A stretch of DNA of 51,452 bases, taken from Patescibacteria group bacterium. Its GTDB lineage: Bacteria; Patescibacteriota; Patescibacteriia; SG8-24; DYFX01. The DNA lies in contig CP129476.1 of NCBI GenBank assembly GCA_030583805.1, positions 1 to 51,452 on the forward strand. Reading direction: 5' to 3'. A program made the translations under genes and the position numbers. Under the pieces are notes generated by a model, which was not told the DNA's origin, searched no databases, and saw only the letters and a program-made list of their open reading frames with translations. Of this stretch, positions 3,616 to 38,926 are shown piece after piece. Every line of letters starts with the position of its first letter. The stretch's first letter is position 1.

Positions 3616-3689
3616 TGGCTCGGGGACTTGGATTCGAACCAAGATTCACGGCTTCAAAGGCCGCTGTCCTACCATTGGACGATCCCCGA
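3616..3689 (-). tRNA. tRNA-Gln, anticodon UUG, CCA encoded
   Basis: Hand-folded cloverleaf: acceptor TCGGGGA/TCCCCGA, D-arm GTCC..GGAC, anticodon stem GCGGC/GCCGT with loop CTTTGAA, T-arm CTTGG-TTCGAAT-CCAAG, discriminator G, CCA. Confidence 0.92.
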
Positions 3690-9418: not shown

Positions 9419-11213
9419 AGGAGGCGTTGTGATTCGGCATTTCGTATTCCTTGCGGTGGACGTACTCGCTTTTCTTGCCGACGTTCCATTGGTCGACGGG
9501 GCGGAAGTAGCCGACGATGCGCGACCACACCTCGCAGCGCTCGCCGCACGCCGGACATTCCGGCTTTTCGCCTTCGAGATAGCCGTGCGACGGGCAGATG
9601 CTGAAGGTCGGCGTGATCGTGAAGTAGGGCAGGTGGTGCGTTTCGGCGACTTTGCGGACGAAGCGCGCGCAAGTCTTCCAATCGCGCACGCGCTCGCCGA
9701 GGAACAGGTGCAAGACGGTGCCGCCGGTATATTTCGATTGCAGGGCGTCCTGATGTCCGAGCGCGTCGAGCGGATCGTTCGTGTGATTGACGGGCAGGTG
9801 CGAAGAGTTCGTGTAGTACGGCGCTTGCGGCGTTCCGGCTTGCAGGATGTCCGGCCAGCGCTTGCGATCTTCTTTCGCGAAGCGGTACGTCGTGCCTTCG
9901 GCCGGCGTCGCTTCCAGATTGTAGAGATGGCCCGTTTCTTCCTGATAGCCGACCAGACGCTCGCGCATGAACTCGAGCACGTCGAGCGCGAAGGCGCGGC
10001 CTTCCTCCGTGGCGATATCAACGCCGAGCAGATTCAAGCACGCCTCGTTCATGCCGTTCAGCCCGATCGTCGAAAAGTGGTTGCGCAGCGTGCCGAGGTA
10101 GCGCTTCGTGAACGGCAAGAGTCCGCGGTCGATGTTGCGCTGCACCGTGACGCGTTTCGTTTCGAGCGACTCTTTCGCCAGGTCCATCAGGCGGCCGAGG
10201 CGCGCCAGGAAGGTTTTTTTCGACTTCGCGCGATAGCCGATGCGGGCAAGATTAATGGTCACGACGCCGACCGATCCGGTCATCTCGGCCGAGCCGAACA
10301 AGCCGTTGCCGCGGGCTTTGAGGGCGCGGAGGTCGAGCTGCAGGCGGCAGCACATGCTGCGGACGTCTTTCGGATCCAGCGCCGAGTTCAAGAAGTTCTG
10401 GAAGTAGGGGATACCGTACTTGGCCGTCATTTCGAACAGGCGCCGCGCGTTCTCGGACTCCCAATCGAAATCCTTCGTGATGTTGTACGTCGGGATCGGG
10501 AAGGTGAAGACGCGCCCGCGGGCGTCGCCGGCCGTCATGACTTCGATGAAGGCGCGATTGATCATCTCCATCTCCGGCGCGCAGTCCGCGTAGGTGTACG
10601 GCTGATCGACCTGGGCAATGCGCGGGCGTTTGTCCCGCAGGTCTTCCGGCACCGTCCAGTCGAGCGTGATGTTGGTGAACGGCGTCTGCATGCCCCAGCG
10701 CGACGGCACGTTGAGATTGAAGACGAATTGCTGGACGGCTTGGCGCACGGCGTCGTAGTCTAACCCGTCGTTTTTGACGTACGGCGCCAGCAGCGTGTCG
10801 AACGAGGAAAAGGCTTGCGCCCCGGCCCACTCGTTTTGCAGCGTACCGAGAAAGTTCACCATCTGTCCGAGCGCCGTTTCAAAGTGCTTCGGCGGCGCCG
10901 ACTCGACCCGCCCGGCGACCCCGTTGAAACCCTCTTCAAGCAGTTGGCGCAGGCTCCAGCCCGCGCAGTAGCCCGCAAACAAGTCGAGATCGTGGATGTG
11001 GAAATCGCCTTCGACGTGCGCCTTCTTCACGGCCTTCGAGTAGACGCGTTCGAGCCAATAGCGCGCCGTCAGCTTTCCAGAAATGTTCAAGATCATTCCG
11101 CCAAGCGAATAGCCCTGATTGGCGTTCGCGTGCACGCGCCAGTCCGATCGATCCAAGTACTCTTCGATGGTCGCGATCGCGTTGACGTGGGAAGCAGGGG
11201 GCTTGGCCGGCAT
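9381..11213 (-). CDS. nrdD: Anaerobic (class III) ribonucleoside-triphosphate reductase, no ATP-cone
   Basis: 610 aa. C-terminal zinc site CPSHG..CPACG and glycyl-radical motif RIVGYFRP. N-terminus EEYLDRSDWRVHANAN. Confidence 0.92.
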   Translation of the reverse strand: MPAKPPASHVNAIATIEEYLDRSDWRVHANANQGYSLGGMILNISGKLTARYWLERVYSKAVKKAHVEGDFHIHDLDLFAGYCAGWSLRQLLEEGFNGVAGRVESAPPKHFETALGQMVNFLGTLQNEWAGAQAFSSFDTLLAPYVKNDGLDYDAVRQAVQQFVFNLNVPSRWGMQTPFTNITLDWTVPEDLRDKRPRIAQVDQPYTYADCAPEMEMINRAFIEVMTAGDARGRVFTFPIPTYNITKDFDWESENARRLFEMTAKYGIPYFQNFLNSALDPKDVRSMCCRLQLDLRALKARGNGLFGSAEMTGSVGVVTINLARIGYRAKSKKTFLARLGRLMDLAKESLETKRVTVQRNIDRGLLPFTKRYLGTLRNHFSTIGLNGMNEACLNLLGVDIATEEGRAFALDVLEFMRERLVGYQEETGHLYNLEATPAEGTTYRFAKEDRKRWPDILQAGTPQAPYYTNSSHLPVNHTNDPLDALGHQDALQSKYTGGTVLHLFLGERVRDWKTCARFVRKVAETHHLPYFTITPTFSICPSHGYLEGEKPECPACGERCEVWSRIVGYFRPVDQWNVGKKSEYVHRKEYEMPNHNASYAHRRTAAAQPA

Positions 11214-18201: not shown

Positions 18202-20043
18202 ATGGACGGCGAAGAACGCGCGCTCTTGGTGTATGACGGCGACTGCGCGTTCTGCCGCTTGTGGGCGGATCATTGGCGCACGCTGACGGCTGATCGCGTC
18301 CAGTACGCGACGTCGCAAGAGATTGCCGCCTCCTTTCCCGACGTGCCGAGAGAAAAGTACGCGCGCGCGGTCCAACTGATCGACGACGACGGCACGCGCT
18401 ATGAAGGCGCTGCCGCCGTGTTCCGCCTGTACGCCAAACGTCCGGGTTTCGGCTGGATGAAACGCTTCTATGAAGCGCCCGCCGTCGCGCCGCTTTCGGA
18501 GTGGGGCTATCGCCTCGTCGCGCGGAACCGCTCGTTCTTCTTGCGCCTCACGCGCCTGCTTTGGGGCAAGAATATCGAAACGCCGAAGTACGGCCTGACG
18601 GCGCGCATTTTTTTGCAAGCGCTTTCCGTCGTCTACTTTTTCGCCTTCCTCTCGCTGCTGCCGCAGCTTCCCGGGCTCGTCGGCGGACAGGGGTTGCTGC
18701 CGGCAGAGTCGTATCTGTCGGCGTTGCGGGCCGAGCATGGCGCTGCGGCCGTCTGGCTTGCGCCGACGCTCGCCTGGTTCGGTGCGCACGAAGGCGCGCT
18801 GCAGTTCATGGCGCTTGCCGGCATCGGGCTTTCGTTCCTCGCCTTCGGCGGCCTATTGCTTGCGCCGTGCCTCGCACTTCTCTGGGCGCTCTACCTCTCT
18901 TTAGCGGTCATCGGCCAGGCTTTCACGGCGTCGGCTTGGGATCTGCTCTTGCTCGAGGCAGGTTTCCTGGCAATCTTCCTCGTTCCGTTCCGCCGGGCGT
19001 CGGGATATCGTTCGCGCGTCGAGGTGTCCGGAACCGTCGTCTGGCTTTTCCGTTTCCTGCTGTTCCGTTTTCTTTTCGGCTCGGGCCTCATGAAGCTGCT
19101 CTCCGGCGACATGCCGTGGCGCGACCTGACCGCGCTCGCCGCCCATTTCGAAACGCAACCGCTGCCAACGGCTCTCGCCTGGTTCGCGCATCACGCGCCG
19201 GCCGGGCTTCTCAAAGTCGCGACGCTGTTCGCGCTCGCGAGCGAGCTTGTCGTGCCGTTCCTGTTTTTCCTGCCGCGCCGCGGGCGCCAGCTTGGCGCGC
19301 TCTTCGTCTTCGCATACCAGATCCTTCTGCTGCTCACGGGAAACTTCGCGTTCTTGAACTGGCTGGCGCTCGCGCTCTGCCTGCCGCTTCTCGACGATGC
19401 GTTGCTTGAACGCGTCTTTCCGCGATTGCGTTCCGCCGCCGCTTCGCCGCCGCAGCGCGAAAGCGTTTGGCGTTCCCGCGTCGTTTCGGGGCTCGCGATC
19501 GTGCTCGTGACGCTCGGGCTCACGCGCCTGCTCGCGCCGTTCGCGCGCTTGCCCGTACCGGCGCTGCTGCTTACGGCCGTGACGTCGCCCCTGCGCATCT
19601 CCAACGACTACGGCCTCTTCGCCGTCATGGCGACGTCGCGACCGGAGATCGTGATCGAAGGTTCTGCGGACGGCATTGCGTGGAAGGAATACGCGTTTGC
19701 CGCAAAACCCGGCGACACGAAGCGCATGCCCGGCTGGGTCGCGCCGTTCCAGCCGCGTCTCGATTGGCAGATGTGGTACGCGGCCAGAAGCGAGCCCGGA
19801 GCGCAATCGTGGATCGCGCCTCTCATGATTCGGCTCTTGCAAGGCTCGGAACCGGCGCGTAGGTTGTTTGGGAGCGATCCGTTCCCGACGTCTCCGCCGA
19901 AATTCGTGCGCGCGACCATGTACGTATACCGCTTCACGACGCCGGAGGAACGCGAGCGCGACGGCGCGTGGTGGCGGCGCGAAATGAAAGCTCCTTATCT
20001 CCCAACGCTTTCTTTGGGCGCAGAGCCCGGAGGTGCACCGTGA
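18202..20043 (+). CDS. DCC1-like thiol-disulfide oxidoreductase domain fused to a lipase-maturation-factor (LMF) family membrane domain
   Basis: N-terminal YDGDCAFC motif. Long polytopic body with a C-terminal region typical of bacterial LMF-family proteins. Confidence 0.7.
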   Translation: MDGEERALLVYDGDCAFCRLWADHWRTLTADRVQYATSQEIAASFPDVPREKYARAVQLIDDDGTRYEGAAAVFRLYAKRPGFGWMKRFYEAPAVAPLSEWGYRLVARNRSFFLRLTRLLWGKNIETPKYGLTARIFLQALSVVYFFAFLSLLPQLPGLVGGQGLLPAESYLSALRAEHGAAAVWLAPTLAWFGAHEGALQFMALAGIGLSFLAFGGLLLAPCLALLWALYLSLAVIGQAFTASAWDLLLLEAGFLAIFLVPFRRASGYRSRVEVSGTVVWLFRFLLFRFLFGSGLMKLLSGDMPWRDLTALAAHFETQPLPTALAWFAHHAPAGLLKVATLFALASELVVPFLFFLPRRGRQLGALFVFAYQILLLLTGNFAFLNWLALALCLPLLDDALLERVFPRLRSAAASPPQRESVWRSRVVSGLAIVLVTLGLTRLLAPFARLPVPALLLTAVTSPLRISNDYGLFAVMATSRPEIVIEGSADGIAWKEYAFAAKPGDTKRMPGWVAPFQPRLDWQMWYAARSEPGAQSWIAPLMIRLLQGSEPARRLFGSDPFPTSPPKFVRATMYVYRFTTPEERERDGAWWRREMKAPYLPTLSLGAEPGGAP

Positions 20044-21583: not shown

Positions 21584-21612
21584 TGGACAAAACCGTGATA
21601 AAGTGCTACCGT
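21584..21612 (+). promoter_or_regulatory. Promoter TGGACA-N17-TACCGT
   Basis: The hexamers and spacing place the GTG at 21611 inside the -10, which favours the ATG at 21638 as the CDS start. Confidence 0.4.
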
Positions 21613-21637
21613 GAGCCGTTTACTACAGGCGCATCCC

Positions 21638-22786
21638 ATGGGCATTCTCGCGAAAACATCGGCACTGTACCGGGGCGTGGCAGACAGCGCGCATGCGCAC
21701 CTCGTTCCCAGTCCGCGTAACGGCCACGTTCCGCATGTCTTGAAGCACCACGTTCTCGCGGGGTACAGCGTGATTTTGATTCTGGTGAAAGCGCTCGTTA
21801 TCTCCGGCTACGTCCTCCTGCCGGCCGCCAGCGTCTACTCGAGCGCGGTGACCGCCGACAATATCGTGCGCCTGACCAACGCCGCGCGCTCGGCGCTCGG
21901 CATGGAAGACCTCGTCGTCGACAGCCGCCTTTCGCGCGCCGCCGCCGGCAAGGCCGAGGACATGGTCATCAACTCGTATTTCGCGCACACCAGCCCGACC
22001 GGCGTCACGCCGTGGTCGTGGATCCGCGGCCAAGGGTATCAATACCTCCATGCCGGCGAGAATCTGGCCGTCCACCTGTTCAGCGCGGAAGGCGTGCATG
22101 AAGGTTGGATGGCGAGCCCCTCGCACCGCGACAACATCGTGAACGGAAAATTCGCCGATATCGGCGTCGGCGTCGCCCGCGGAACCTATGAGGGTTTCGA
22201 CACGGTTTTTGTCGTCCAAATGTTCGGCACGCCGAAACAGCCGGCGCCGCAGCTCGCCGCCGCGCCGCAGCCGGAACCGACACCCGAACCTCCCGCCGCG
22301 ACAACCGCGACGGTTCTTCCGACGGCTGAAGGGTACAAGGTTACGTTGGCGGAAGGCCGCGTCGAAGCGGCAACCGCGATGATCGCGAACCAAGCCGTGA
22401 CGATGAAAAAAAACGCGGACGGCAATTTGGAAGCGACCGTGCCGGTCGACAAAAAAACGATCGAGCCGGAGGGCCAGCACGTCTACGTCGCGACCACTGA
22501 CGCGAACGGCGCGCAGGAAGTCTCGAGCGTCGCCATCGTTTCGCCGAACGCGGACGCCCAGCAAGTATTCGTGCCCGTCGGCGACATCCGCCCCCTCAAG
22601 TTGTTCGGCGTCTTTGAAATCCGCGATCTCGAAGATTCGACGAAGCGTTTTTACGTCGTGATGAGCGTGCTCCTCGGCGCCATCCTCCTGGCCAGCGTGG
22701 TCATCAGGTTCGAAGTGCAGAAGCACGCCGTTTCGCTGCACGCGCTGTTCGTGATCGGCCTCTCGCTGACGCTCGCCTTCATTTGA
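21638..22786 (+). CDS. CAP/SCP (YkwD-like) domain protein with N- and C-terminal TM segments
   Basis: NAARSALG, YFAHTSPTG, GENLA and HRDNIVNGKFADIGVG are CAP-domain hallmarks. The start could alternatively be GTG 21611. Confidence 0.75.
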   Translation: MGILAKTSALYRGVADSAHAHLVPSPRNGHVPHVLKHHVLAGYSVILILVKALVISGYVLLPAASVYSSAVTADNIVRLTNAARSALGMEDLVVDSRLSRAAAGKAEDMVINSYFAHTSPTGVTPWSWIRGQGYQYLHAGENLAVHLFSAEGVHEGWMASPSHRDNIVNGKFADIGVGVARGTYEGFDTVFVVQMFGTPKQPAPQLAAAPQPEPTPEPPAATTATVLPTAEGYKVTLAEGRVEAATAMIANQAVTMKKNADGNLEATVPVDKKTIEPEGQHVYVATTDANGAQEVSSVAIVSPNADAQQVFVPVGDIRPLKLFGVFEIRDLEDSTKRFYVVMSVLLGAILLASVVIRFEVQKHAVSLHALFVIGLSLTLAFI

Positions 22787-23555: not shown

Positions 23556-26306
23556 TTACGAGCGTGAGCGGCGCAGGAACGGCACCGCGATCAGGAGAAC
23601 GCTCCAAAGCGTCCACGCCGGCATGCCGGTGACCGGCAGATCGCTGTCGGACGCGCCCAAGACTTGGGGTACCGGGCCGACCGGAGCGGTCGGTTCGGGC
23701 GCGGGCGGCGGCGTCGGGTCTCCGCCGGAGGGCGGGGCCGGAGGCGGCGTCGGGTCTCCACCGGAAGGCGGATTCGGGCTGCCGCCACTGGGCGGGAAAT
23801 CGTCGTGGGTCACGACGCAGATGGCGCTTTGATTCACGGCAAGCGTGCCGGTGCAGCCGGGGCTGAAGCTCCTGGCGTAGGCAGGATTGACGGAGCTGTC
23901 GACGACATAGGCGCCCGGGGCGTAGGCAAACGTGAAGCCGGGGGTATCCATACCGGCGAACGTCGAAACGATGGAAATGCCGTCGCCGACCATCATCAGG
24001 AAGGAGGCCGGCAGCGCAATGCCGCCGTCGTCATTGATGACGCGCGTCACGACGGTCAGCTGGGCGGACGAGTTGCCTCCGCCGCCCGGCGGCGTCGGGG
24101 CGATGTCGTCGTTCGTGATGGTGCACGTCTTGTAGTCTCCGGAAGAGATCGTGACGAGACCAGAAGCGTCGCAGTCGCCGGAGAACGAAGCGGCATAGTT
24201 CGGCGATCCCGTTTCGCTGACGACGTACGAGCCCTCAGACAAGACGTTCGCGGAGCCGGAAACGACCGACGTCTGATTGATGAAGAGCGGGAAGTCGGAA
24301 ACCTGGGCCGAGCCGCCGTCGTTGTTGATGACGACTTTGACGACGGTCAGGACGCCGGTCGAAGGTTCTTCATCCTCAGGCGGGGCGACGTAGGTGTTGG
24401 TGATGGTGCAGGTCAGGTTTTCGTCGGCGGCAAGGGTCACATTGCCCTGCGCGTCGCAATCGCCAGTGATGACGCCCGTGTAGTTCGCTTGATTCGTCTC
24501 GCTGACGACGTAGGAGCCGACCGGCAACGTTTCAGCCTGGCTGGACGTCACCGACGTCTGACCGATGAACAGCGGGAAGTCGGACACCTGCGCGGTGCCG
24601 CCACTCACGACTTTTACGACGGTGATCGTGCCGGTTTGCGCCGGAGGAGCGTCGTAGGTGTTGGTGATCGTGCACGTCTTGTTATCGCCGTTTTCGAGCG
24701 TGATGCCTCCTTGAGGATCGCAATCGCCGGAAATAACGCTGGTGTAGTTCGTCTGGTTCGGATCGTTCGTTTCGCTGACGACGTAGCTGCCGGCATTCAC
24801 CGTGTTCTGCGCGCCGCTCGTAACCTGGGTGTTGCCGATGAACAACGGGAAATCGCTGGCGGTCATGGAGCCGCCGACAACCACCTTCTCGACCGTCAGG
24901 ACGGCCGGGGCGTCGTCGTTCGTCAGCGTGCAGGTCAACTCTTCGCCAGCAGCCAACGTCACAAACGGGCTGCCGTCGCAGGCGCCGGAGAAGGTCGTGG
25001 TGTAGTAGCCGTTCGAACCCTGTTCAGAGATCCAGTAGGTGCCTGGCGCGAAGGTGTTGGCATCGCCGGAGTGAACGCTCGTGCTGGTGCTTGTATCGAC
25101 GACTTGGCCAGGAGCTTCGTAAACGAAGAACTGGAAATCGCCAAGCGTGGCGTCGCCGCCGTTGTCGTTCACGATGACTTTTTCGACCGTGATCGTTCCG
25201 GTGGTCGGAGCGATGGCGTCATCGTTGTTGGTCACGACGCAGGTCTTTGTTTCGCCTGAAGCAATCGTGCCGGTGCAATCAGTCGAGTAAGAAGCGGTAT
25301 AGCCTGAAGCAGCCGTTTCGACGACGGAGTAGGAGCCGGCATCCATGGTGATGCTCGTGCCGGTGTCGGAACCGGGGAAGGACGACGTCGAAACATTCGT
25401 ACCGGTGACGTTCATCGTGAAGTCAGAGGCAACGGAAGTACCAGCATCGTCGTTGACAACGTCTTTGATGACGATCAGGGTGCCGGGCTGTGTCGCAGCC
25501 GAAACAGCGTCTGCCGAAAGGGAGCGGTCTTGGTTGCCGAGGTTGGCGCCCGTCAGGCTGACAAGACGCATGTGATACGGCGAGCCGCTGATGCCGCCCG
25601 CGGAGTTACCCGTGCCCCAGTCTGAAGACGAGCCGATATGGCCTCCCCAGGCAAAGACAACCGTCGATTCGCTCGCGGTGAATTGGATCTGAACCTGCGT
25701 CGAGGCCGACGAAGCGGTCAGGTCGCCTTCGGAAACGTAGGTAATGCCGGTTCCGGAAATCGAGGCGTTATACATCGACAACGCGCGCTCGGATGCAGGG
25801 AGCGCGTTGAACGAGGTTGTCGGTTGGCCGGAAGTGGGCGAGTTCGTCGAGCTCGGTGCCGGGAATGCGGCAGTGCCGGAAAGAGAGCAGGGGGACACGT
25901 TGTCGCACGGACTGGCCGTCGACTCGGTACGATCAAACGATGTTAGATAGTCGATCGCGTGCTTGCCGCTGTGCTTGATGTCGTACTCGATTACCAAGGT
26001 GATCGTCCCGGTCGTCGGGATGTTTTCCAAGATAACGCGATACGGCGCTGACTGGCCTTCAGCGTAATGCGAGTTATTGCTGTTCAGGTTGCCGTTTTGC
26101 CATGCGCTGCCCGTGCAGTCGTTCGGCGTTGAAACCGGGCCGTTGCTGCATTGATCGAGGTCGGCAGACGGGTTCGCTTGGTGGTTACCGGCCTGGACGG
26201 CAGCGCCAACGACGATCTGGGCGATCAAGGCAAACGCCAACAGGGCGACCGTGGACGTTTTGATCCCGGATGCCACGGAGCGATGAATAAAGGTAGACGT
26301 ACGCAT
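23556..26306 (-). CDS. Large LPXTG-anchored surface protein (916 aa) with six tandem Ig-like repeats
   Basis: AAAGGGAG SD and signal peptide. C-terminus is LPVTG (nt 23625-23639) plus a hydrophobic segment plus RRSRS. A Pro-rich stalk precedes it. Confidence 0.85.
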   Translation of the reverse strand: MRTSTFIHRSVASGIKTSTVALLAFALIAQIVVGAAVQAGNHQANPSADLDQCSNGPVSTPNDCTGSAWQNGNLNSNNSHYAEGQSAPYRVILENIPTTGTITLVIEYDIKHSGKHAIDYLTSFDRTESTASPCDNVSPCSLSGTAAFPAPSSTNSPTSGQPTTSFNALPASERALSMYNASISGTGITYVSEGDLTASSASTQVQIQFTASESTVVFAWGGHIGSSSDWGTGNSAGGISGSPYHMRLVSLTGANLGNQDRSLSADAVSAATQPGTLIVIKDVVNDDAGTSVASDFTMNVTGTNVSTSSFPGSDTGTSITMDAGSYSVVETAASGYTASYSTDCTGTIASGETKTCVVTNNDDAIAPTTGTITVEKVIVNDNGGDATLGDFQFFVYEAPGQVVDTSTSTSVHSGDANTFAPGTYWISEQGSNGYYTTTFSGACDGSPFVTLAAGEELTCTLTNDDAPAVLTVEKVVVGGSMTASDFPLFIGNTQVTSGAQNTVNAGSYVVSETNDPNQTNYTSVISGDCDPQGGITLENGDNKTCTITNTYDAPPAQTGTITVVKVVSGGTAQVSDFPLFIGQTSVTSSQAETLPVGSYVVSETNQANYTGVITGDCDAQGNVTLAADENLTCTITNTYVAPPEDEEPSTGVLTVVKVVINNDGGSAQVSDFPLFINQTSVVSGSANVLSEGSYVVSETGSPNYAASFSGDCDASGLVTISSGDYKTCTITNDDIAPTPPGGGGNSSAQLTVVTRVINDDGGIALPASFLMMVGDGISIVSTFAGMDTPGFTFAYAPGAYVVDSSVNPAYARSFSPGCTGTLAVNQSAICVVTHDDFPPSGGSPNPPSGGDPTPPPAPPSGGDPTPPPAPEPTAPVGPVPQVLGASDSDLPVTGMPAWTLWSVLLIAVPFLRRSRS
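23707..23778 (-). repeat. Two tandem 36-nt repeats encoding the PPSGGDPTPPPA stalk
   Basis: ggcggcgtcgggtctccRccggaRggcgg occurs at 23707 and 23743. Confidence 0.7.
23801..25484 (-). repeat. Six tandem domain repeats of about 90 aa within the LPXTG protein
   Basis: Recurrent pattern G(T/V)(I/L)TV.KVV...SDFPLFI...GSYVVSET...Y...(S/T)GDCD...C(T/V)(I/V)TN. Confidence 0.75.
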
Positions 26307-35501: not shown

Positions 35502-35512
35502 TAAGGATATAC

Positions 35513-35539
35513 AAAATTAGCCTAATATAGGCTAATTTT
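35513..35539. repeat. Perfect 10-bp inverted repeat aaaattagcc-N7-ggctaatttt in the AT-rich junction
   Basis: Read directly. Could be a bidirectional terminator for the RNase gene or an operator. Confidence 0.6.
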
Positions 35540-35572
35540 GCTAATATAAGCAATTTATATTGTCAGTTAGTA

Positions 35573-35601
35573 TTGACAAAACCGCTTAAATATGCTAGAC
35601 T
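35573..35601 (+). promoter_or_regulatory. Promoter TTGACA-N17-TAGACT for the island operon A-D
   Basis: ttgaca 35573-35578, 17-nt spacer, tagact 35596-35601. Confidence 0.6.
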
Positions 35602-35651
35602 GCCTTCATCGTAGCACTGGCAGTTCAACCCGTATTTCCGGAGGATTTCTC

Positions 35652-35963
35652 ATGAAGACCCTGCTCATTTCGCTCGTCATCGCCCTCGGCCTCTTCACCG
35701 CCACCCAGACCGCCTCGGCCGAGCGCAGGCTCGAGAATCCGGTGCACAACGTCGTGAAGCTCGAGATCAAGAAGGCGAAGTTCGTCTTCAGCAAGCCGAC
35801 CACGATCCAGATCAAGCCCTGTGTCGACGACGCCCGCTACGAGTGCGTCTACAAGCTGGTCGGCAAGCGCCGCAACAAGGAGATCAAGATCTACGAGTAC
35901 CGGGCGCACGACTACGTCCTCCCGATCTACACGACCGAGGAGAAGGTCGCCGCCAAGAACTGA
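35652..35963 (+). CDS. Island gene A: small secreted protein (103 aa)
   Basis: GGAGGA SD 6 nt before the ATG. Signal peptide ending TASA-ER. Two Cys. Near-total G/C at third codon positions. Confidence 0.65.
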   Translation: MKTLLISLVIALGLFTATQTASAERRLENPVHNVVKLEIKKAKFVFSKPTTIQIKPCVDDARYECVYKLVGKRRNKEIKIYEYRAHDYVLPIYTTEEKVAAKN

Positions 35964-35995
35964 TCTCACGATCCCACCACCAACCACGCCTCAGC

Positions 35996-36079
35996 GCCTC
36001 AGTCGCGTCGAGCACTCCTGCTCGACGTCCCGCCAAAGGTTCCGAAACGATTCGGAAACTTCGGCGGGAAATTCTTCCC
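35996..36079 (+). repeat. Intergenic two-hairpin element, copy 1
   Basis: Hairpin 1 gcgtcgagca-ctcc-tgctcgacg (36005-36028). Hairpin 2 cccgcc..ttccgaa-acga-ttcggaa..ggcggg (36029-36068). Confidence 0.75.
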
Positions 36080-36132
36080 AACTGTTCCCTATACGCGCAC
36101 CGGCGCACACAACCCAGACCAAGGAGCTTTCC

Positions 36133-36495
36133 GTGAATCACTCCCTATTGCGTCGTGAAGCCGTCATCCCTCCGCCCCCGCTGTCGAAGCGCGTTATTCA
36201 CCTGCTGTCGCTCATGAAGCTTCAGTTTCTCGTCATCGGCCTCTCGGCTGCGGTTGCCACGATGTGGTGCGGCCCTATCGGGTTCGATGCCGCTCTTGCA
36301 CAAAAGATCGGCAAGGTTGATCAGCCCGCCTTGCAGCATCCTACGCAAGAGTCGCCATCGTGCATCCTGAGCTTCGGCGACCAACTCGCCGTGCTTCGAG
36401 TGCTGAACGTCGATCCTTCGACCGTTGATGCAGTGCGCTGCGCCGTCGACGGTAAGACGGTCGAGATGACCTATACAGTGCGTTCTCAGCACTGA
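36133..36495 (+). CDS. Island gene B: small protein with one hydrophobic segment (120 aa)
   Basis: AAGGAG SD 6 nt before the GTG. Hydrophobic segment MKLQFLVIGLSAAVATMWCG. Alternative start at ATG 36214. Confidence 0.55.
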   Translation: MNHSLLRREAVIPPPPLSKRVIHLLSLMKLQFLVIGLSAAVATMWCGPIGFDAALAQKIGKVDQPALQHPTQESPSCILSFGDQLAVLRVLNVDPSTVDAVRCAVDGKTVEMTYTVRSQH

Positions 36496-36520
36496 GCTCA
36501 GTACCGAACTTATTCTGCTT

Positions 36521-36595
36521 CGCGTCGAGCACTCCTGCTCGACGTCCCGCCAAAGGTTCCGATACACTCGGAATCTCCGGCGGGAAATCCTTCCC
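36521..36595 (+). repeat. Intergenic two-hairpin element, copy 2
   Basis: Same 45-nt core as copy 1. Hairpin 2 differs in loop and inner stem but stays paired (ttccga-tacac-tcggaa). Confidence 0.75.
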
Positions 36596-36643
36596 TCCGA
36601 TCACCAAACACTCGAGGCTTTCGTCTCGAAAGGAGCTCGTTCC

Positions 36644-37030
36644 ATGTTCGGCAAAGCCTTGTTCATCCTCGTGGTTGCGATCATCGCCATCGCTGTCTTT
36701 CTCGTCTGGTTGGACGGATGGCGCGCCAAGCGTCGCAAGCGCCAGCAGCAGAAGATCTTCCTCGACGTGAAGATCGAGGGCGTTCCGTACTGGGCCTACA
36801 AGCACGCAATCGGTCCGTTCGACACGATCGCGCAGCTGCAGGACTGGGAGCGGCGTTTCAAGGAAGGCCTCAAGAACCTCTCCTTGCCCAGTGAACCCTC
36901 GTTCACGCACCGCTACTCCGACAGCTACCGATGGACTCCGGAAGACGCCTTGAGCGACCTTCGGAAGTCGTTGCGCACGTTCGCGTCCCTGCCGGTCGCA
37001 GACCTGCCCACGGATCGGTACGTGAACTGA
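36644..37030 (+). CDS. Island gene C: N-terminally anchored membrane protein (128 aa)
   Basis: AGGAG SD. TM segment ALFILVVAIIAIAVFLVWL followed by KRRKRQQQK. Confidence 0.6.
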   Translation: MFGKALFILVVAIIAIAVFLVWLDGWRAKRRKRQQQKIFLDVKIEGVPYWAYKHAIGPFDTIAQLQDWERRFKEGLKNLSLPSEPSFTHRYSDSYRWTPEDALSDLRKSLRTFASLPVADLPTDRYVN

Positions 37031-37047
37031 CCGTCTCGTTCGTTTTC

Positions 37048-37077
37048 GCCTCAGCCGCGTCGAGCACTCCTGCTCGA
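37048..37077 (+). repeat. Intergenic element, copy 3 (hairpin 1 only, followed by a different hairpin)
   Basis: gcctcagccgcgtcgagcactcctgctcga matches copy 1 over about 29 nt. Confidence 0.65.
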
Positions 37078-37184
37078 AAAAGAAAGATGGGTCCGTATCC
37101 GAGAGGCCCATCGTTCCGCAACACGCAGGCGATCGATCGCTCGGACAAGGAAGTTTCCCCACAACATCGCACCCCGAGGTTGTC

Positions 37185-37439
37185 ATGGATGAGAAAATCC
37201 TGATCGTCATCACGACCTTTCGCAGCGACAACGATCGCGACCTGAGGCGGGAATGCCTCGGGCCGTACGATCGGCAAACGGCGCCGGCCAAGCTCGAAGG
37301 CCTCTTCGCGCTTTGCCGCAAGGAAGGCATGAAAAGCCTGAAGGGCTTCAAGGCCATCCGCCGCGGCGTCTGCCTGCACAAGCCGGGGACGCGCTTGTGC
37401 GTCGAGATCAGGGTGGACAGCTTTGTCCCCAGCCACTGA
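37185..37439 (+). CDS. Island gene D: small cytoplasmic protein (84 aa)
   Basis: GAGG SD 5 nt before the ATG. Four Cys. No recognisable motif. Confidence 0.5.
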   Translation: MDEKILIVITTFRSDNDRDLRRECLGPYDRQTAPAKLEGLFALCRKEGMKSLKGFKAIRRGVCLHKPGTRLCVEIRVDSFVPSH

Positions 37440-37478
37440 TCCGTGCAGCGCGTCGTTGACCGGCGCCACTCAGTCCTC

Positions 37479-37503
37479 AAGACCCTCCCAAGGGTCTTTT
37501 GTT
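37479..37503 (+). terminator. Intrinsic terminator ending the A-D operon
   Basis: aagaccct-ccca-agggtctt followed by a T-run. Confidence 0.75.
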
Positions 37504-37519
37504 CGTATTGAGCTTATTA

Positions 37520-37548
37520 TTGACATGATTGCTTCTACCTGATAGCCT
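37520..37548 (+). promoter_or_regulatory. Promoter TTGACA-N17-TAGCCT for island gene E
   Basis: ttgaca 37520-37525, 17-nt spacer, tagcct 37543-37548. Confidence 0.55.
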
Positions 37549-37592
37549 CAGTCTCGTCTTTGGACAGCCCGATTGCCGGGTAGGAGGTTTCG

Positions 37593-38795
37593 ATGCGTTC
37601 TACGTCCATCTTGCTGCTCTCCTTGGTTTTCCTGGTCTGTGCCGGCGCCTGTGCCGGACGCCAGCGGCCCCAGCAGGGGCTGCATTCCGAGACGCGCCAG
37701 ACGGCGCCGAACGCTCCCGACCCCGACGTCCGGATCGTTCCCAATGACACCGTCGACACGAAGATCAGCCTGCCCGAAGCGCCGACGACGTCGGACGAGG
37801 TCGCGGCTTCTGTCGTGACGAAGAAGCCGGTTCCGCCCCGCGCCAAGCGCGTTCGCTCCGTCCAGGAGCGACCCAGCGCCGAAGCCCGGCGCGTGACCGA
37901 CACGGACGCCGCCCGGCCGCAGGCCGAGCGCGCGCGAACGCGCGGGACGCACGTCCCGGCCGCACTGCCTGACAACGACGCAACCGTCATTGCCATGCGT
38001 GCCGAGCCCGGCGCGCCGCCCCATCGTTCCGACGCTCCCGTCGCGCAAGCGACCGTCGAGCCCGATCCGTTCCATGCTCCTCCGAGCTCTTCCTCGACGC
38101 AGGTCGCTTTCCGCGACACGCGCACACGACCATTGACACCTCTGTCCCCGCGAGAGCGGGAACGCGCCAACGCCGCCGCCCTCGCCGCCCTGGAATCACC
38201 GATTTCCGCGGCGACGAACGCCGCGCAGCCCGCACCGACGGCTCCTTCCGAGCCGGCATCCGTCATCTCCGCCACCGACACGACTTCGCGGCGCCTCGAT
38301 GCCGCGATCGCCGACTCCGAACCTTCGTCGGCCACGCAGGCCGGCGTTTCCACGAACCTGTACGTTCCGAGCGCTCCAGAGAGCGCTTCGAGTTCCCGCC
38401 TGTACCAGTACGTTCCCGCGATCATCGTCGCGCTGCTCCTCGGCATCCTCATCGGCTACGTGCTTTCGCGCCTTCCGGCGCGCGGATCTTCATTCGATGA
38501 CGACATCTATCCGGATGTCGATCACGCGTCAGCCGGCGCGCATGCGCCCGAGTCCGTCCCGGTATCCGAACCTGCTCCCGTACAGGAGCCCGTTCCCGTG
38601 CTCGTCGTTCCAAGTCCCGCCAGTTCGAGCGTGGAGGCCATGCCTCCCACGCAGTTCCCCGAAGGCTCCGGCAGCATCGTCACATCCGCAGGACCCGACG
38701 CCTGCTCTTCCGTCTCGGGCGAGATCGAGCTCCTCGATTCTCCCGCGCCTCAAGAGGCGCCGACACCACCAACAACCGAAACGCGGTTGAACTGA
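37593..38795 (+). CDS. Island gene E: low-complexity Pro/Ala/Ser-rich envelope protein with a signal peptide and a late TM (400 aa)
   Basis: AGGAGG SD. Signal ILLLSLVFLVCAGAC. TM IIVALLLGILIGYVL near residue 285. Confidence 0.65.
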   Translation: MRSTSILLLSLVFLVCAGACAGRQRPQQGLHSETRQTAPNAPDPDVRIVPNDTVDTKISLPEAPTTSDEVAASVVTKKPVPPRAKRVRSVQERPSAEARRVTDTDAARPQAERARTRGTHVPAALPDNDATVIAMRAEPGAPPHRSDAPVAQATVEPDPFHAPPSSSSTQVAFRDTRTRPLTPLSPRERERANAAALAALESPISAATNAAQPAPTAPSEPASVISATDTTSRRLDAAIADSEPSSATQAGVSTNLYVPSAPESASSSRLYQYVPAIIVALLLGILIGYVLSRLPARGSSFDDDIYPDVDHASAGAHAPESVPVSEPAPVQEPVPVLVVPSPASSSVEAMPPTQFPEGSGSIVTSAGPDACSSVSGEIELLDSPAPQEAPTPPTTETRLN

Positions 38796-38821
38796 CCGCA
38801 CCACGACCCCACCGTTTCTGA

Positions 38822-38851
38822 CGGCCCCTCCTCGAGGCGGCCGGTTTTTTT
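38822..38851 (+). terminator. Intrinsic terminator closing the island
   Basis: GC-rich imperfect hairpin cggcccctc/gaggcggccg followed by TTTTTTT. Confidence 0.7.
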
Positions 38852-38859
38852 ATTCCGCT

Positions 38860-38897: not shown

Positions 38898-38926
38898 TTG
38901 ACAAGACTGTTTACGAACGGTATTTT
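38898..38926 (+). promoter_or_regulatory. uvrB P2: TTGACA-N17-TATTTT
   Basis: Canonical spacing. Ends 16 nt before the ATG at 38943. Confidence 0.5.

Follow-up and report, generated by a model that had tools for sequence, protein, structure and literature searches.

A hypervariable locus of small, mostly envelope-targeted proteins between a beta-CASP RNase gene and uvrB in Patescibacteria, with a folded RNA motif among its cassettes

Organization of the locus and its products

Examination of 51,452 nucleotides from a Patescibacteria group bacterium (assembly GCA_030583805.1, contig CP129476.1; this whole stretch is hereafter called the window) revealed five genes on the same strand, A to E, lying between a beta-CASP RNase gene and uvrB. 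An earlier note, made from the sequence alone, had listed five open reading frames, each with an SD site, together with two promoters and two terminators, all of which are present, and had missed a structured direct repeat of about 93 nt between the cassettes. The features are as follows.

35518-35539, + strand: AT-rich hairpin TAGCCTA-ATA-TAGGCTA and then a T-run, probably terminating the beta-CASP RNase gene
35573-35601, + strand: predicted promoter P_A, TTGACA-N17-TAGACT, TG-extended -10, 10/12 matches
35652-35963, + strand: gene A, 103 aa, secreted, signal peptide ending ASA|E, two conserved Cys
35999-36091, + strand: RNA motif copy 1, after A; covariance model R1 86.5 bits, intergenic fold z = -5.8; helix P1 at 36006-36027, rod of P2/P3 spanning about 36029-36073 and interrupted by an AA/CC internal loop, P4 (GGGAA/TTCCC) optional
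36133 (GTG start)-36495, + strand: cassette gene B, 120 aa, one TM segment, start after AAGGAG
36516-36607, + strand: RNA motif copy 2, after B; R1 92.1 bits, intergenic fold z = -6.0
36644-37030, + strand: cassette gene C, 128 aa, N-terminal TM
37050-37078, + strand: motif remnant after C, 5' flank and P1 hairpin only, running straight into D's conserved 5' UTR
37185-37439, + strand: gene D, 84 aa, basic, cytoplasmic, four Cys, no hydrophobic segment
37479-37498 plus T-run, to 37503, + strand: predicted intrinsic terminator of the A-B-C-D unit
37520-37548, + strand: promoter P_E, TTGACA-N17-TAGCCT, TG-extended -10, as read from the sequence
37593-38795, + strand: gene E, 400 aa, lipobox-like signal, Pro/Ala/Ser-rich ectodomain, TM, cytoplasmic tail
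38822-38843 plus T7, to 38850, + strand: predicted intrinsic terminator of E

The SD sites of A to E (in order GGAGGA, AAGGAG, AGGAG, GAGG and AGGAGG) are located 5-9 nt upstream of the starts. Two transcription units, A-B-C-D and E, are borne out by the predicted promoters and terminators, and no internal promoter was found. The P_A stretch TTGACAAAA...TGCTAGACT is identical across all eight aligned genomes and the RNase terminator hairpin is kept in seven of eight related genomes aligned; the P_E arrangement recurs in the related loci L045 and L004, and homology between the window and locus L002 picks up again at P_E.

A search of the five products against Pfam, NCBIfam, PADLOC and PHROGs gave no family match at a meaningful score and no similarity among the five was detected at BLAST level, so that the absence of recognisable motifs and of paralogy reported earlier both hold. 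Their description as orphan and mostly envelope-targeted is likewise supported: the products are lineage-restricted, and a signal peptide or TM segment is predicted in 48 of 59 proteins encoded at the locus. B carries an N-terminal LxREVxxP motif common to other cassette proteins, and no homologue of B as such was found. Homologues of C, at 30-35% identity, occur in L045 and L057 only, at other array positions. D is found in four relatives at 80-88% identity, always directly before E, and its AF2 model (pLDDT 74) gave no fold match. E shows a conserved lipobox-like xGAC|AGRQ signal and a TM segment at about residues 270-296.

Conservation of the site and turnover of the cassettes

The interval between the RNase gene and uvrB is filled in all 11 related genomes having both flanks, where its size ranges from 1.7 to 4.8 kb. 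Flank proteins are 85-98% identical among relatives, while identity to relatives falls to 29-74% for A and 26-72% for E. Among 15 related loci, A has homologues in 11 and E in 13, and D in its own subclade; A is the fixed head of the array and E the fixed tail of the locus.

The earlier note had read the locus as a horizontally acquired accessory island, on the grounds that it has an AT-rich boundary, brings its own promoters and terminators and encodes orphan products, to which the low codon adaptation of B and E (CAI 0.52) could be added. The AT-rich stretch of about 100 nt after the RNase stop is real (35502-35600) but consists of the conserved RNase terminator hairpin and the invariant promoter. 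The return to very high GC beyond it was overstated, the GC of the interval (0.613) being that of the rest of the window and of the genome. The RNase gene and uvrB are directly adjacent in none of the 11 relatives with both flanks, homologues of A, E and D occupy the same place in relatives, and neither a tRNA, an integrase nor flanking direct repeats were found. Recent acquisition is therefore highly improbable, and the occupied sites and the native composition refute it for the entire locus. What remains of the accessory character concerns B and C, which are exchangeable between relatives.

Codon counts confirm that A uses almost exclusively G/C at third positions (GC3 0.96; AAG 13, AAA 0; GAG 8, GAA 0), every Lys codon being AAG, whereas ftsE is mixed (AAG/AAA 9/5; GAG/GAA 12/6). 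This bias is not a mark of foreignness, as it follows the genome's own preferred codons: the CAI of A (0.83) is the top value in the window, its orthologues are likewise GC-rich at third positions (GC3 0.95-0.98), and neither GC3 nor CAI is unusual in C and D. Because extreme GC3 and CAI point toward the preferred codons of the genome, and orthologues are alike, A bears the marks of a native gene that is probably highly expressed. A and E evolve very fast, with dN/dS of 1.07-1.45 and 0.62-0.70, compared to 0.03-0.08 for the flanks; values above 1 for A are exaggerated because its dS is very low (0.15-0.18), a consequence of codon-bias constraint. D is under purifying selection (0.17-0.25).

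Between these fixed ends, the middle genes (here B, C and D) are swapped between close relatives, D being more stable. B and C are missing from nearly all relatives, and cassette families reappear at differing array positions in different genomes. The number of cassettes varies from zero in L004, which is reduced to A, motif, terminator and E, to six or seven in L045 and L060. Cassettes thus turn over at a conserved locus. Arrays also vary in L007, L008 and L011, which carry no motif; the motif is therefore not required for variability.

Such rapid turnover of many small and diverse proteins, separated by repetitive intergenic sequences and including a cytoplasmic minority (D and the F1 family) beside membrane proteins, is reminiscent of the rAID-1 clusters (10.1101/471110) and could suggest that the array consists of orphan genes for immunity or defence, directed against toxins of neighbours or against phages. 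This reading is nevertheless quite improbable: the products are mostly extracytoplasmic and none has a PADLOC, Pfam or NCBIfam match, GC is not skewed, and recombinase, toxin and secretion-system genes are all absent nearby. The phage-exclusion type of function proposed earlier finds no more favour, no defence-system model matching any product.

A structured intercistronic repeat

Across 15 loci the motif was found 28 times, in every case within the array and on the + (sense) strand; the rest of the 51-kb window and the flanks contain no copy, the search having covered about 20-50 kb per genome. Covariation is strong: in the motif alignment, 93.7% of cells are paired and both sides have changed in 15 of 23 pairs; none of 500 shuffles reaches the observed pairing and covariation, slid controls are 31-47% paired, and RNAalifold gives the same helices independently. 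Many of the covarying cells are not independent events, since copies are homogenised within a genome (W_1 and W_2 are 92% identical). G.U cells outnumber A.C cells (25 vs 7), which favours the sense strand as the folded strand. No Rfam family matches the motif, a previously undescribed folded RNA element that, within the 20-50 kb searched per genome, is specific to this locus.

Palindromic, GC-rich, intergenic and present in several copies per locus, the repeat has the outward features of a selfish or neutral element of REP, BIME or MITE type, multiplied locally and devoid of operon function. That it should be so is scarcely credible given that the 28 copies share orientation and context, that terminal inverted repeats and target duplications were not seen, that the structure survives wholesale replacement of the P1 sequence as well as compensatory changes in P2/P3, and that the element persists across genomes with flank dS up to 1.3-1.6.

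The two parts of the motif have distinct affinities: P1 follows the upstream gene family (identity 0.85 vs 0.73 background) and P2-P4 follow the downstream one (0.80 vs 0.71), with junctions falling exactly at the P1|P2 boundary in three independent comparisons. The motif is thus modular at this boundary. A recurrent junction of this kind, together with same-strand promoterless cassettes behind a single promoter, array lengths from zero to six or seven and a P2/P3 rod whose central unpaired spacer recalls attC architecture, evokes an integron-like system, in which the motif would act as a folded single-stranded DNA site, an unlinked tyrosine recombinase would insert and excise cassettes at the fixed P1|P2 point, and L004 would be an empty array. 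We consider this rather improbable. The RYYYAAC...GTTRRRY boxes are present in none of the 28 copies, and the identification of the motif as attC was rejected on these tests; two hairpins are found instead of one; and the DNA on either side (about 10 kb upstream, 13 kb downstream) contains no recombinase gene. Moreover, attC recombines as the bottom strand, whereas the wobble asymmetry indicates the sense strand and the tolerance of G.U pairs suits RNA better than DNA.

An RNA function could take the form of a riboswitch-like or leader-type regulator that responds to a ligand or protein and switches each downstream cassette, as opposed to an element acting in processing or stability. The internal loop keeps the same nucleotides throughout (CAAAG facing CUCC). 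P4 shows covariation and competition with the 3' arm of P2 in about 22 of the 28 copies, but it is much less stable (-5 to -15 kcal/mol) than the P2/P3 rod (-17 to -29 kcal/mol). The 5' flank, rich in pyrimidines, can also sequester the SD in predicted folds: in 18 of 26 minimum-free-energy structures it pairs with the SD downstream, a predicted pairing that can show no covariation, the SD being invariant. With a small motif devoid of a multi-stem junction pocket and of any Rfam match, such a regulator is possible but unlikely. In L004, furthermore, the motif is placed in the 3' UTR with no cistron downstream to regulate, and a pure 5'-leader role cannot be general for this reason.

Proposed role of the locus

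Taken together, we give a probability of roughly 0.6 to a hypervariable locus for envelope proteins, maintained by vertical descent in a Patescibacteria/Minisyncoccota clade and equipped with an intercistronic RNA motif that doubles as an exchange junction. Placed between two core genes, coding for the beta-CASP RNase and UvrB, the locus comprises a first unit in which a strong conserved promoter precedes A and then interchangeable small-protein cassettes (B, C and the stabler D), and a second unit encoding E, a fast-evolving lipoprotein-like membrane protein. The bipartite motif of about 93 nt bounds each front cassette and would be transcribed within the polycistronic mRNA, the P1 hairpin forming the 3' end of the upstream cistron and the P2/P3 rod, with P4, the 5' leader of the downstream one. 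It may serve as intercistronic punctuation at the RNA level, by providing each cistron with protective 3' and 5' hairpins and/or by gating the SD, while its copies may offer portable homology for the gain, loss and swap of cassettes by recombination among relatives. The biological role would then be the variation of cell-surface or host- or phage-facing proteins.

Comparison with known systems

Flexible genomic islands of the replacement and additive types have been described for exposed cell structures (Lopez-Perez, Martin-Cuadrado and Rodriguez-Valera 2014, PMC4033161). As in these islands, for which homologous recombination is the proposed exchange mechanism, one site is filled in all relatives, flanks are conserved core genes and contents are divergent and envelope-exposed. 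The present locus differs by its tiny size, by orphan mini-proteins in place of glycosyltransferase or O-antigen genes, by the array of cassettes inside it and their dedicated structured repeat, and by its host, a reduced-genome Patescibacterium.

Integron arrays and CALINs (attC clusters lacking integrase) also consist of promoterless same-strand small ORFs behind one promoter, each bounded by a structured imperfect-palindrome repeat, with variable length and content and an "empty" version. The locus departs from them by the lack of attC R boxes and of a nearby integrase, by a bipartite two-hairpin repeat under sense-strand structural constraint with frequent G.U pairs, and by the genes A and E, conserved and specific to the locus, that anchor the array on either side.

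Hairpins between cistrons are well known from the RNase III sites of phage T7 early mRNA and from REP/BIME stabilisers, where a stem/internal-loop/stem lies between cistrons and leaves terminal hairpins. By analogy, the conserved hairpins between consecutive cistrons of one predicted transcript could act in a comparable way; the rod is however only about 15 bp, bears no sequence relationship, and belongs to a single-locus motif that also marks DNA exchange junctions.

The rAID-1 arrays of Bacteroidales are recombinase-associated orphan-immunity arrays with repeats "reminiscent of integrons" (10.1101/471110). They share long runs of small diverse genes split by repetitive intergenic sequences, but their GC is skewed and they carry a conserved XerD-family recombinase as well as recognisable immunity homologues, three features absent here. 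Finally, a hypervariable gene module found in Thermococcales and built around an Ig-domain protein, viewed by its authors as a self/non-self or conflict system (PMC8416519), is archaeal, involves unrelated proteins and is presented in an abstract that mentions no structured intergenic repeat; as summarised there, it nonetheless shares with the present locus a conserved anchor gene that has small genes downstream of it in unique combinations.

Gene organization of the locus

The interval between the beta-CASP RNase gene and uvrB is a conserved, two-unit, hypervariable envelope-protein locus that carries a cassette array. Genes A and E form its fixed ends, the cassette genes B, C and D lie between them, and a structured direct repeat (hereafter the motif) separates the cassettes.

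Features of the locus (position, strand, feature, source)
35573-35601, +, first promoter, TTGACA-N17-TAGACT (sequence)
35652-35963, +, gene A (ORF call)
35999-36091, +, motif copy 1, 3' of A (repeat search, covariance model R1)
36133 (GTG)-36495, +, gene B (ORF call)
36516-36607, +, motif copy 2, 3' of B (repeat search, covariance model R1)
36644-37030, +, gene C (ORF call)
37050-37078, +, motif remnant 3' of C, first hairpin alone (repeat search)
37185-37439, +, gene D (ORF call)
37479-37498, +, intrinsic terminator 3' of D (terminator scan)
37520-37548, +, second promoter (E promoter), TTGACA-N17-TAGCCT (sequence)
37593-38795, +, gene E (ORF call)
38822-38843 plus T7, +, intrinsic terminator 3' of E (sequence and fold)

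The five ORFs have the coordinates, sizes and strand that the earlier note gave them, the SD sequences of all five can be read in the sequence, and the two promoters and two terminators are of the type described. The codon counts of A are likewise as reported (AAG 13 and AAA 0, GAG 8 and GAA 0, GC3 0.96, against mixed codons in ftsE), the AT-rich stretch of about 100 nt directly after the RNase stop is real (GC 0.53 in that 500-nt window vs about 0.61 elsewhere), and profile searches with A to E gave no meaningful match in Pfam, NCBIfam, PADLOC or PHROGs. Since all of these points check out, the observation is confirmed, but it left out the conspicuous direct repeat.

One long ORF on the minus strand (36341-37480) was discarded as a shadow ORF (GC3 0.63, GC2 0.54). 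The long uvrB ORF starting from TTG 38895 overlaps the uvrB promoter itself (TTGACA-N17-TATTTT, 38898-38926), and the true start is therefore probably ATG 38943. Even in distant relatives, and despite the quick divergence of E, its 5' UTR (GATAGCCTCAG...GTCTTTGGACA) is kept (window 37543-37592, L045 3560-3602, L004 7290-7339); it may be a regulatory leader. All five window genes end in (A/C)AC-TGA. A C-terminal Asn, often as ...LN, was observed across all loci in 20 of 70 array proteins vs 1 of 33 reference genes of the window (here at 35961-35963, 37028-37030 and 38793-38795); it is found in 8 of the 9 called E family members and in most A proteins.

Conservation, composition and origin

A scan of the RNase protein against one genome per species yielded 11 close relatives (76-93% identity), to which loci from exact-protein look-ups and from one metagenome contig were added. 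Relatives that bear a credible label are MAGs of Patescibacteria or Minisyncoccota. Of the 11 related MAGs, seven (L004-L008, L010 and L012) were deposited as 'uncultured Gammaproteobacteria bacterium', which are probably taxonomic mislabels in view of this RNase identity and of the synteny with the MAGs labelled Patescibacteria or Minisyncoccota.

The earlier note had read the five genes as a horizontally acquired island. The gap between the RNase gene and uvrB measures 1.7-4.8 kb in all 11 relatives with both flanks, and no empty site was found among them. Protein identity to the window is 85-98% for the flanks, 29-74% for A, 26-72% for E and 80-88% for D, which is present in four relatives; C has homologues of only 30-35% identity, at other array positions of L045 and L057, and B has none in the related loci and databases searched. 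The GC content of the interval is 0.613, vs about 0.61 for the window. Compared with 25 reference genes (GC3 0.80 +/- 0.03, CAI 0.68 +/- 0.06), C (GC3 0.84, CAI 0.66) and D (0.85, 0.70) are ordinary and within the reference range, the values are rather low for B (0.69, 0.52) and E (0.76, 0.52), and A, with a CAI of 0.83, is the most codon-adapted gene of the window. The codon bias of A is thus as extreme as had been claimed, but it does not serve as a foreign mark: it runs towards the preferred codons of the genome and recurs in the orthologues of L002, L003 and L006 (GC3 0.95-0.98). This common codon adaptation indicates that A is a native, probably highly expressed gene and not foreign DNA.

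The AT-rich stretch, proposed as the island boundary, is alignable in eight genomes and consists of a hairpin with a T-run, which we read as the terminator of the RNase gene, followed by an invariant TTGACAAAA...TGCTAGACT promoter. Neither an integrase nor border repeats were found around the segment, and the only tRNA of the window lies at 3616-3689. Native composition, a conserved promoter and terminator in the AT-rich stretch and the lack of border marks or of an empty site leave horizontal acquisition of the whole locus unsupported. Orphan genes and an AT-rich boundary in a small genome need not, therefore, mean horizontal acquisition. Extra genes between the RNase gene and the array in two relatives (L010 11411-13409, L005 4839-6014) indicate that the site also accepts larger insertions; both sets include a multi-TM protein of about 390 aa, and that of L010 only, a 204-aa protein with a HEAGH metalloprotease-like motif.

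A structured motif between the cassettes

The motif is a new, sense-strand structured element that is specific to the array in the DNA searched. A search by nhmmer and then by R1, the covariance model of the motif, recovered 28 full copies in 15 loci, all of them on the sense strand between an A-type and an E-type gene. No copy outside the array was found in a filters-off search of the whole 51-kb window or in 14 other loci, so that no REP-like dispersal was seen in the DNA searched, and a scan of viral contigs gave zero matches. A metagenome scan with the motif pattern returned 15 stretches, approximately the chance number, of which only L045 is a true array; two others, L043 and L052, look like chance matches forced by the pattern. 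In a short-read Logan assembly made from the same sample, contig breaks fall within motif copies 1 and 2 (L001 ends at 10381, L059 starts at 1), so the repeat fragments assemblies, and MAGs may under-represent or mis-join motif arrays.

The motif is composed of a hairpin of 8-9 bp (P1) and a rod (P2/P3, 6 + 8 bp) split by an AA/CC internal loop that is invariant (CAAAG facing CUCC). In a 23-copy alignment, which was fitted to the structure model and so leans towards it, 93.7% of cells are paired and 15 of 23 pairs have changes on both sides; none of 500 shuffles reached the observed values, and sliding the partners gave 31-47% pairing. A MAFFT alignment led to the same pairing result, and RNAalifold alone predicts the same helices. 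P1 has been swapped wholesale in five copies for other sequences that still form a hairpin, and folding of the two intergenic regions in the window gave z-scores of -5.8 and -6.0. The excess of G.U over A.C cells (25 vs 7) points to constraint on the transcribed sense strand and favours an RNA; a minus-strand reading was rejected (model scores of 17-35 bits vs 55-92 bits on the sense strand).

Two more features are suggestive but less strong. P4 (GGGAA/UUCCC, with covarying variants) is a short hairpin that shares nucleotides with the 3' arm of P2 in some 22 of the 28 copies, and in 18 of 26 minimum-energy folds the SD downstream is paired to the pyrimidine-rich 5' flank CCUCAGC. A riboswitch-like regulator, one of the two chief alternatives to the model proposed below, could be envisaged from such an SD pairing on a sense-strand RNA; the best Rfam 15 matches had E values of at least 3, far under gathering scores, with none overlapping the motif, and we regard this reading as unlikely. 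The motif was also rejected as an intrinsic terminator: P1 is followed by UCCC and P2/P3 by AAAUYC without U-runs, whereas the true terminators of the same locus (37479, 38822) have a U-tract, and the terminator scan lists none at the motifs. Downstream of the motif, cassettes of the F2 and K families carry a conserved leader made of a GGGCGAnCGnGCCC hairpin and then AACAACCCCGGCCAAGGAGGCCAACATG, with the SD in the loop of a GGCC/GGCC stem (L002 12399-12435, L055 4994-5035, L058 1749-1790, L060 5048-5089).

Cassette exchange and rates of evolution

The cassettes are promoterless and on the same strand, their number and identity vary between close relatives, and the same gene families occupy differing positions across arrays. 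A C-family gene stands at the second position in the window, at the first in L057 and at the third in the contig-covered part of L045, and the family of protein L058_1169 opens the array of L058 and comes second in that of L060. Array size ranges from zero cassettes (L004, in which A is followed by the motif, the terminator, the E promoter and E) to six or seven genes (L045, L060).

Each half of the motif segregates with the gene next to it. The DNA of the window and that of L002 are homologous up to the 3' end of motif copy 1 and again from the E promoter on. Where the same cassette has different neighbours (L058/L060 and L002/L058), identity rises to 30/30 exactly at P2 and P1 differs; at D of the window, a conserved 5' UTR starts directly after the P1 remnant. 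Among all between-genome pairs, those with the same upstream family have a higher identity in P1 (0.85) than in P2-P4 (0.73), and those with the same downstream family a higher identity in P2-P4 (0.80) than in P1 (0.71), against a background of 0.73 and 0.75 for P1 and P2-P4, in a sample of few independent junctions whose same-upstream class is mostly gene A. Since P1 follows the upstream family and P2-P4 the downstream one, the exchangeable unit appears from these comparisons to be P2-P4, UTR, ORF and P1, in that order.

Nei-Gojobori estimates for the window vs three relatives gave dN/dS values of 0.03-0.08 for the flanks (mgtE, RNase and uvrB, dS 0.5-1.6), 0.17-0.25 for D, 0.62-0.70 for E and 1.07-1.45 for A. 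The ratio of A is inflated by constrained synonymous sites (dS only 0.15-0.18), but its dN (0.16-0.26) exceeds the flank values five- to seven-fold. At near-equal flank divergence (RNase 92-93%), the identity of A spans 32% to 74%, which suggests that old allelic classes of A have been exchanged among lineages. The variable positions of A are N-terminal and its conserved part is a C-terminal core. A diversity-generating retroelement target was discarded, as no part of A or E is repeated in the window and the variable positions of A are at the N-terminus.

Predicted proteins of the array

A signal peptide or TM segment was predicted in 48 of 59 array-encoded proteins, which by prediction bears out the view of envelope-targeted orphan products. 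A has an ASA/E signal-peptidase site and a conserved two-Cys core. In E, a conserved xGAC/AGRQ lipobox-like signal is combined with a low-complexity ectodomain, a single TM segment and a tail; lipobox-like sequences are also found in several cassettes. D, a basic cytoplasmic protein, is conserved and has four invariant Cys. The N-terminal 'LxREVxxP' motif of B, followed by a TM segment, is common to 12 otherwise unrelated cassette proteins, which supports the GTG start of B and the view that B is a real cassette gene. These 13 proteins, picked by eye without computed significance, have a cytoplasmic N-terminus of the form ~M-x(2-6)-L-x-R-E-V-x-x-P before the TM helix (window 36133-36200, L002, L006, L009, L010, L012, L045, L055, L058, L060, L062); they span about eight families, and their C-terminal regions are without detectable similarity.

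Searches of databases with billions of proteins found A, D and E solely in a few close relatives within this small lineage, and C matched only itself; no names or domains were recovered for A, C, D or E. AlphaFold2 gave an unusable model of A (pLDDT 40) and, for D, a pLDDT of 74 in one of five models. A Foldseek search of the D model against the PDB found no fold match (best E = 0.4, TM at most 0.37), and a profile of D-like cassettes matched nothing in PDB sequences. A 'GP[FY]' domain common to C, D and other cassettes was not accepted (hhalign probability 13%). The phage-exclusion type of function that had been among the candidates drew no backing from known defence models, as zero PADLOC-DB families matched A to E at E up to 1.

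Elsewhere in the window, about 11 kb upstream, 24021-24875 contains three tandem copies of a unit of about 285 nt (60-75% identical) inside a large gene for a repetitive envelope protein, whose product in the matching contig has SpaA-type surface-protein domains. Two architectures unexpected in a reduced-genome Patescibacterium lie at 18202-20043 and 21611-22786: in one, a DCC1-like thiol-disulfide oxidoreductase domain is fused to domains of LMF1 (lipase maturation factor), and the other is a protein with a CAP (cysteine-rich secretory protein) domain.

A model for the array

We propose a model that joins RNA punctuation, repeat-mediated cassette exchange and surface variation, to which, taken jointly, we give a probability of about 60%. 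The motif would punctuate a polycistronic message, with P1 acting as a protective 3' hairpin for the upstream cistron and P2-P4 as the 5' leader of the downstream cistron, possibly gating its SD. The homology for gain, loss and swapping of cassettes among relatives would come from the motif copies and from the conserved ends A and E. The pay-off would be varied surface molecules towards hosts or phages, as in the flexible-island proposal (PMC4033161).

A bolder version, which we put forward tentatively and consider possible rather than probable, is that the bipartite motif defines a new gene-cassette system in Patescibacteria, independent of a recombinase or using an unknown one. Each cassette would be self-contained (5' leader rod P2-P4, ORF, 3' hairpin P1), and the P1/P2 junction would be the point of both mRNA processing and DNA exchange. 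If so, reduced-genome symbionts would shuffle surface mini-proteins in a plug-and-play manner, with expression signals carried along. Patescibacteria (CPR) live on host cells to which they attach, and hardly any determinants of their surface and host interaction have been described; the locus is a compact candidate, with a secreted protein in which amino-acid change outpaces synonymous change, a fast-evolving lipoprotein and shuffled membrane mini-proteins at one conserved chromosomal address. The covariance model of the motif is a handle to find such arrays, and the motif can be used for transcript-processing maps in metatranscriptomes. It also raises the question of how cassette arrays are built without an integron integrase.

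Comparison with known systems

Integron attC sites function as a folded bottom strand, and CALINs also occur without an integrase, so that a missing integrase alone is not decisive. As in integrons and CALINs, the arrays described here are promoterless, same-strand and variable between close relatives, a likeness that would also fit an attC-like site served by an unlinked recombinase. The motif, however, has two separate helices (P1 and P2/P3) instead of the single imperfect hairpin of attC, and its constraint is on the sense strand (25 G.U vs 7 A.C). The attC core pair R'' (RYYYAAC) / R' (GTTRRRY) was present in 0 of 28 copies on either strand, and Pfam lists contained no recombinase in about 10 kb upstream, in the window at 18-23 kb and 43-51 kb, or in the neighbourhoods of L055 and L060. 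Identity with an integron attC is rejected on these grounds (no R''/R' boxes, no integrase in about 10 kb to either side, two hairpins, sense-strand constraint), and the attC-like site for an unlinked recombinase is very doubtful.

The immunity arrays rAID-1 have a conserved XerD-family recombinase and recognisable immunity-gene homologues (10.1101/471110); they were rejected here, where neither recombinase, immunity homologues nor GC skew was seen. The locus is closer to replacement and additive flexible genomic islands, for the former of which surface-molecule variation facing hosts or phages has been proposed (PMC4033161): it occupies the same place in all relatives, its flanks are conserved, its content is divergent or non-homologous, and its products are envelope-exposed too, by prediction. 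For diversity driven by phage or host recognition, the dN/dS of A (1.07-1.45) and of E (about 0.65) would be indirect evidence. Hypervariable surface islands and repeat-bounded cassette arrays are already known kinds; this one is set apart by the organism, the orphan mini-proteins, an array without an integrase and a bipartite RNA-level motif absent from Rfam.
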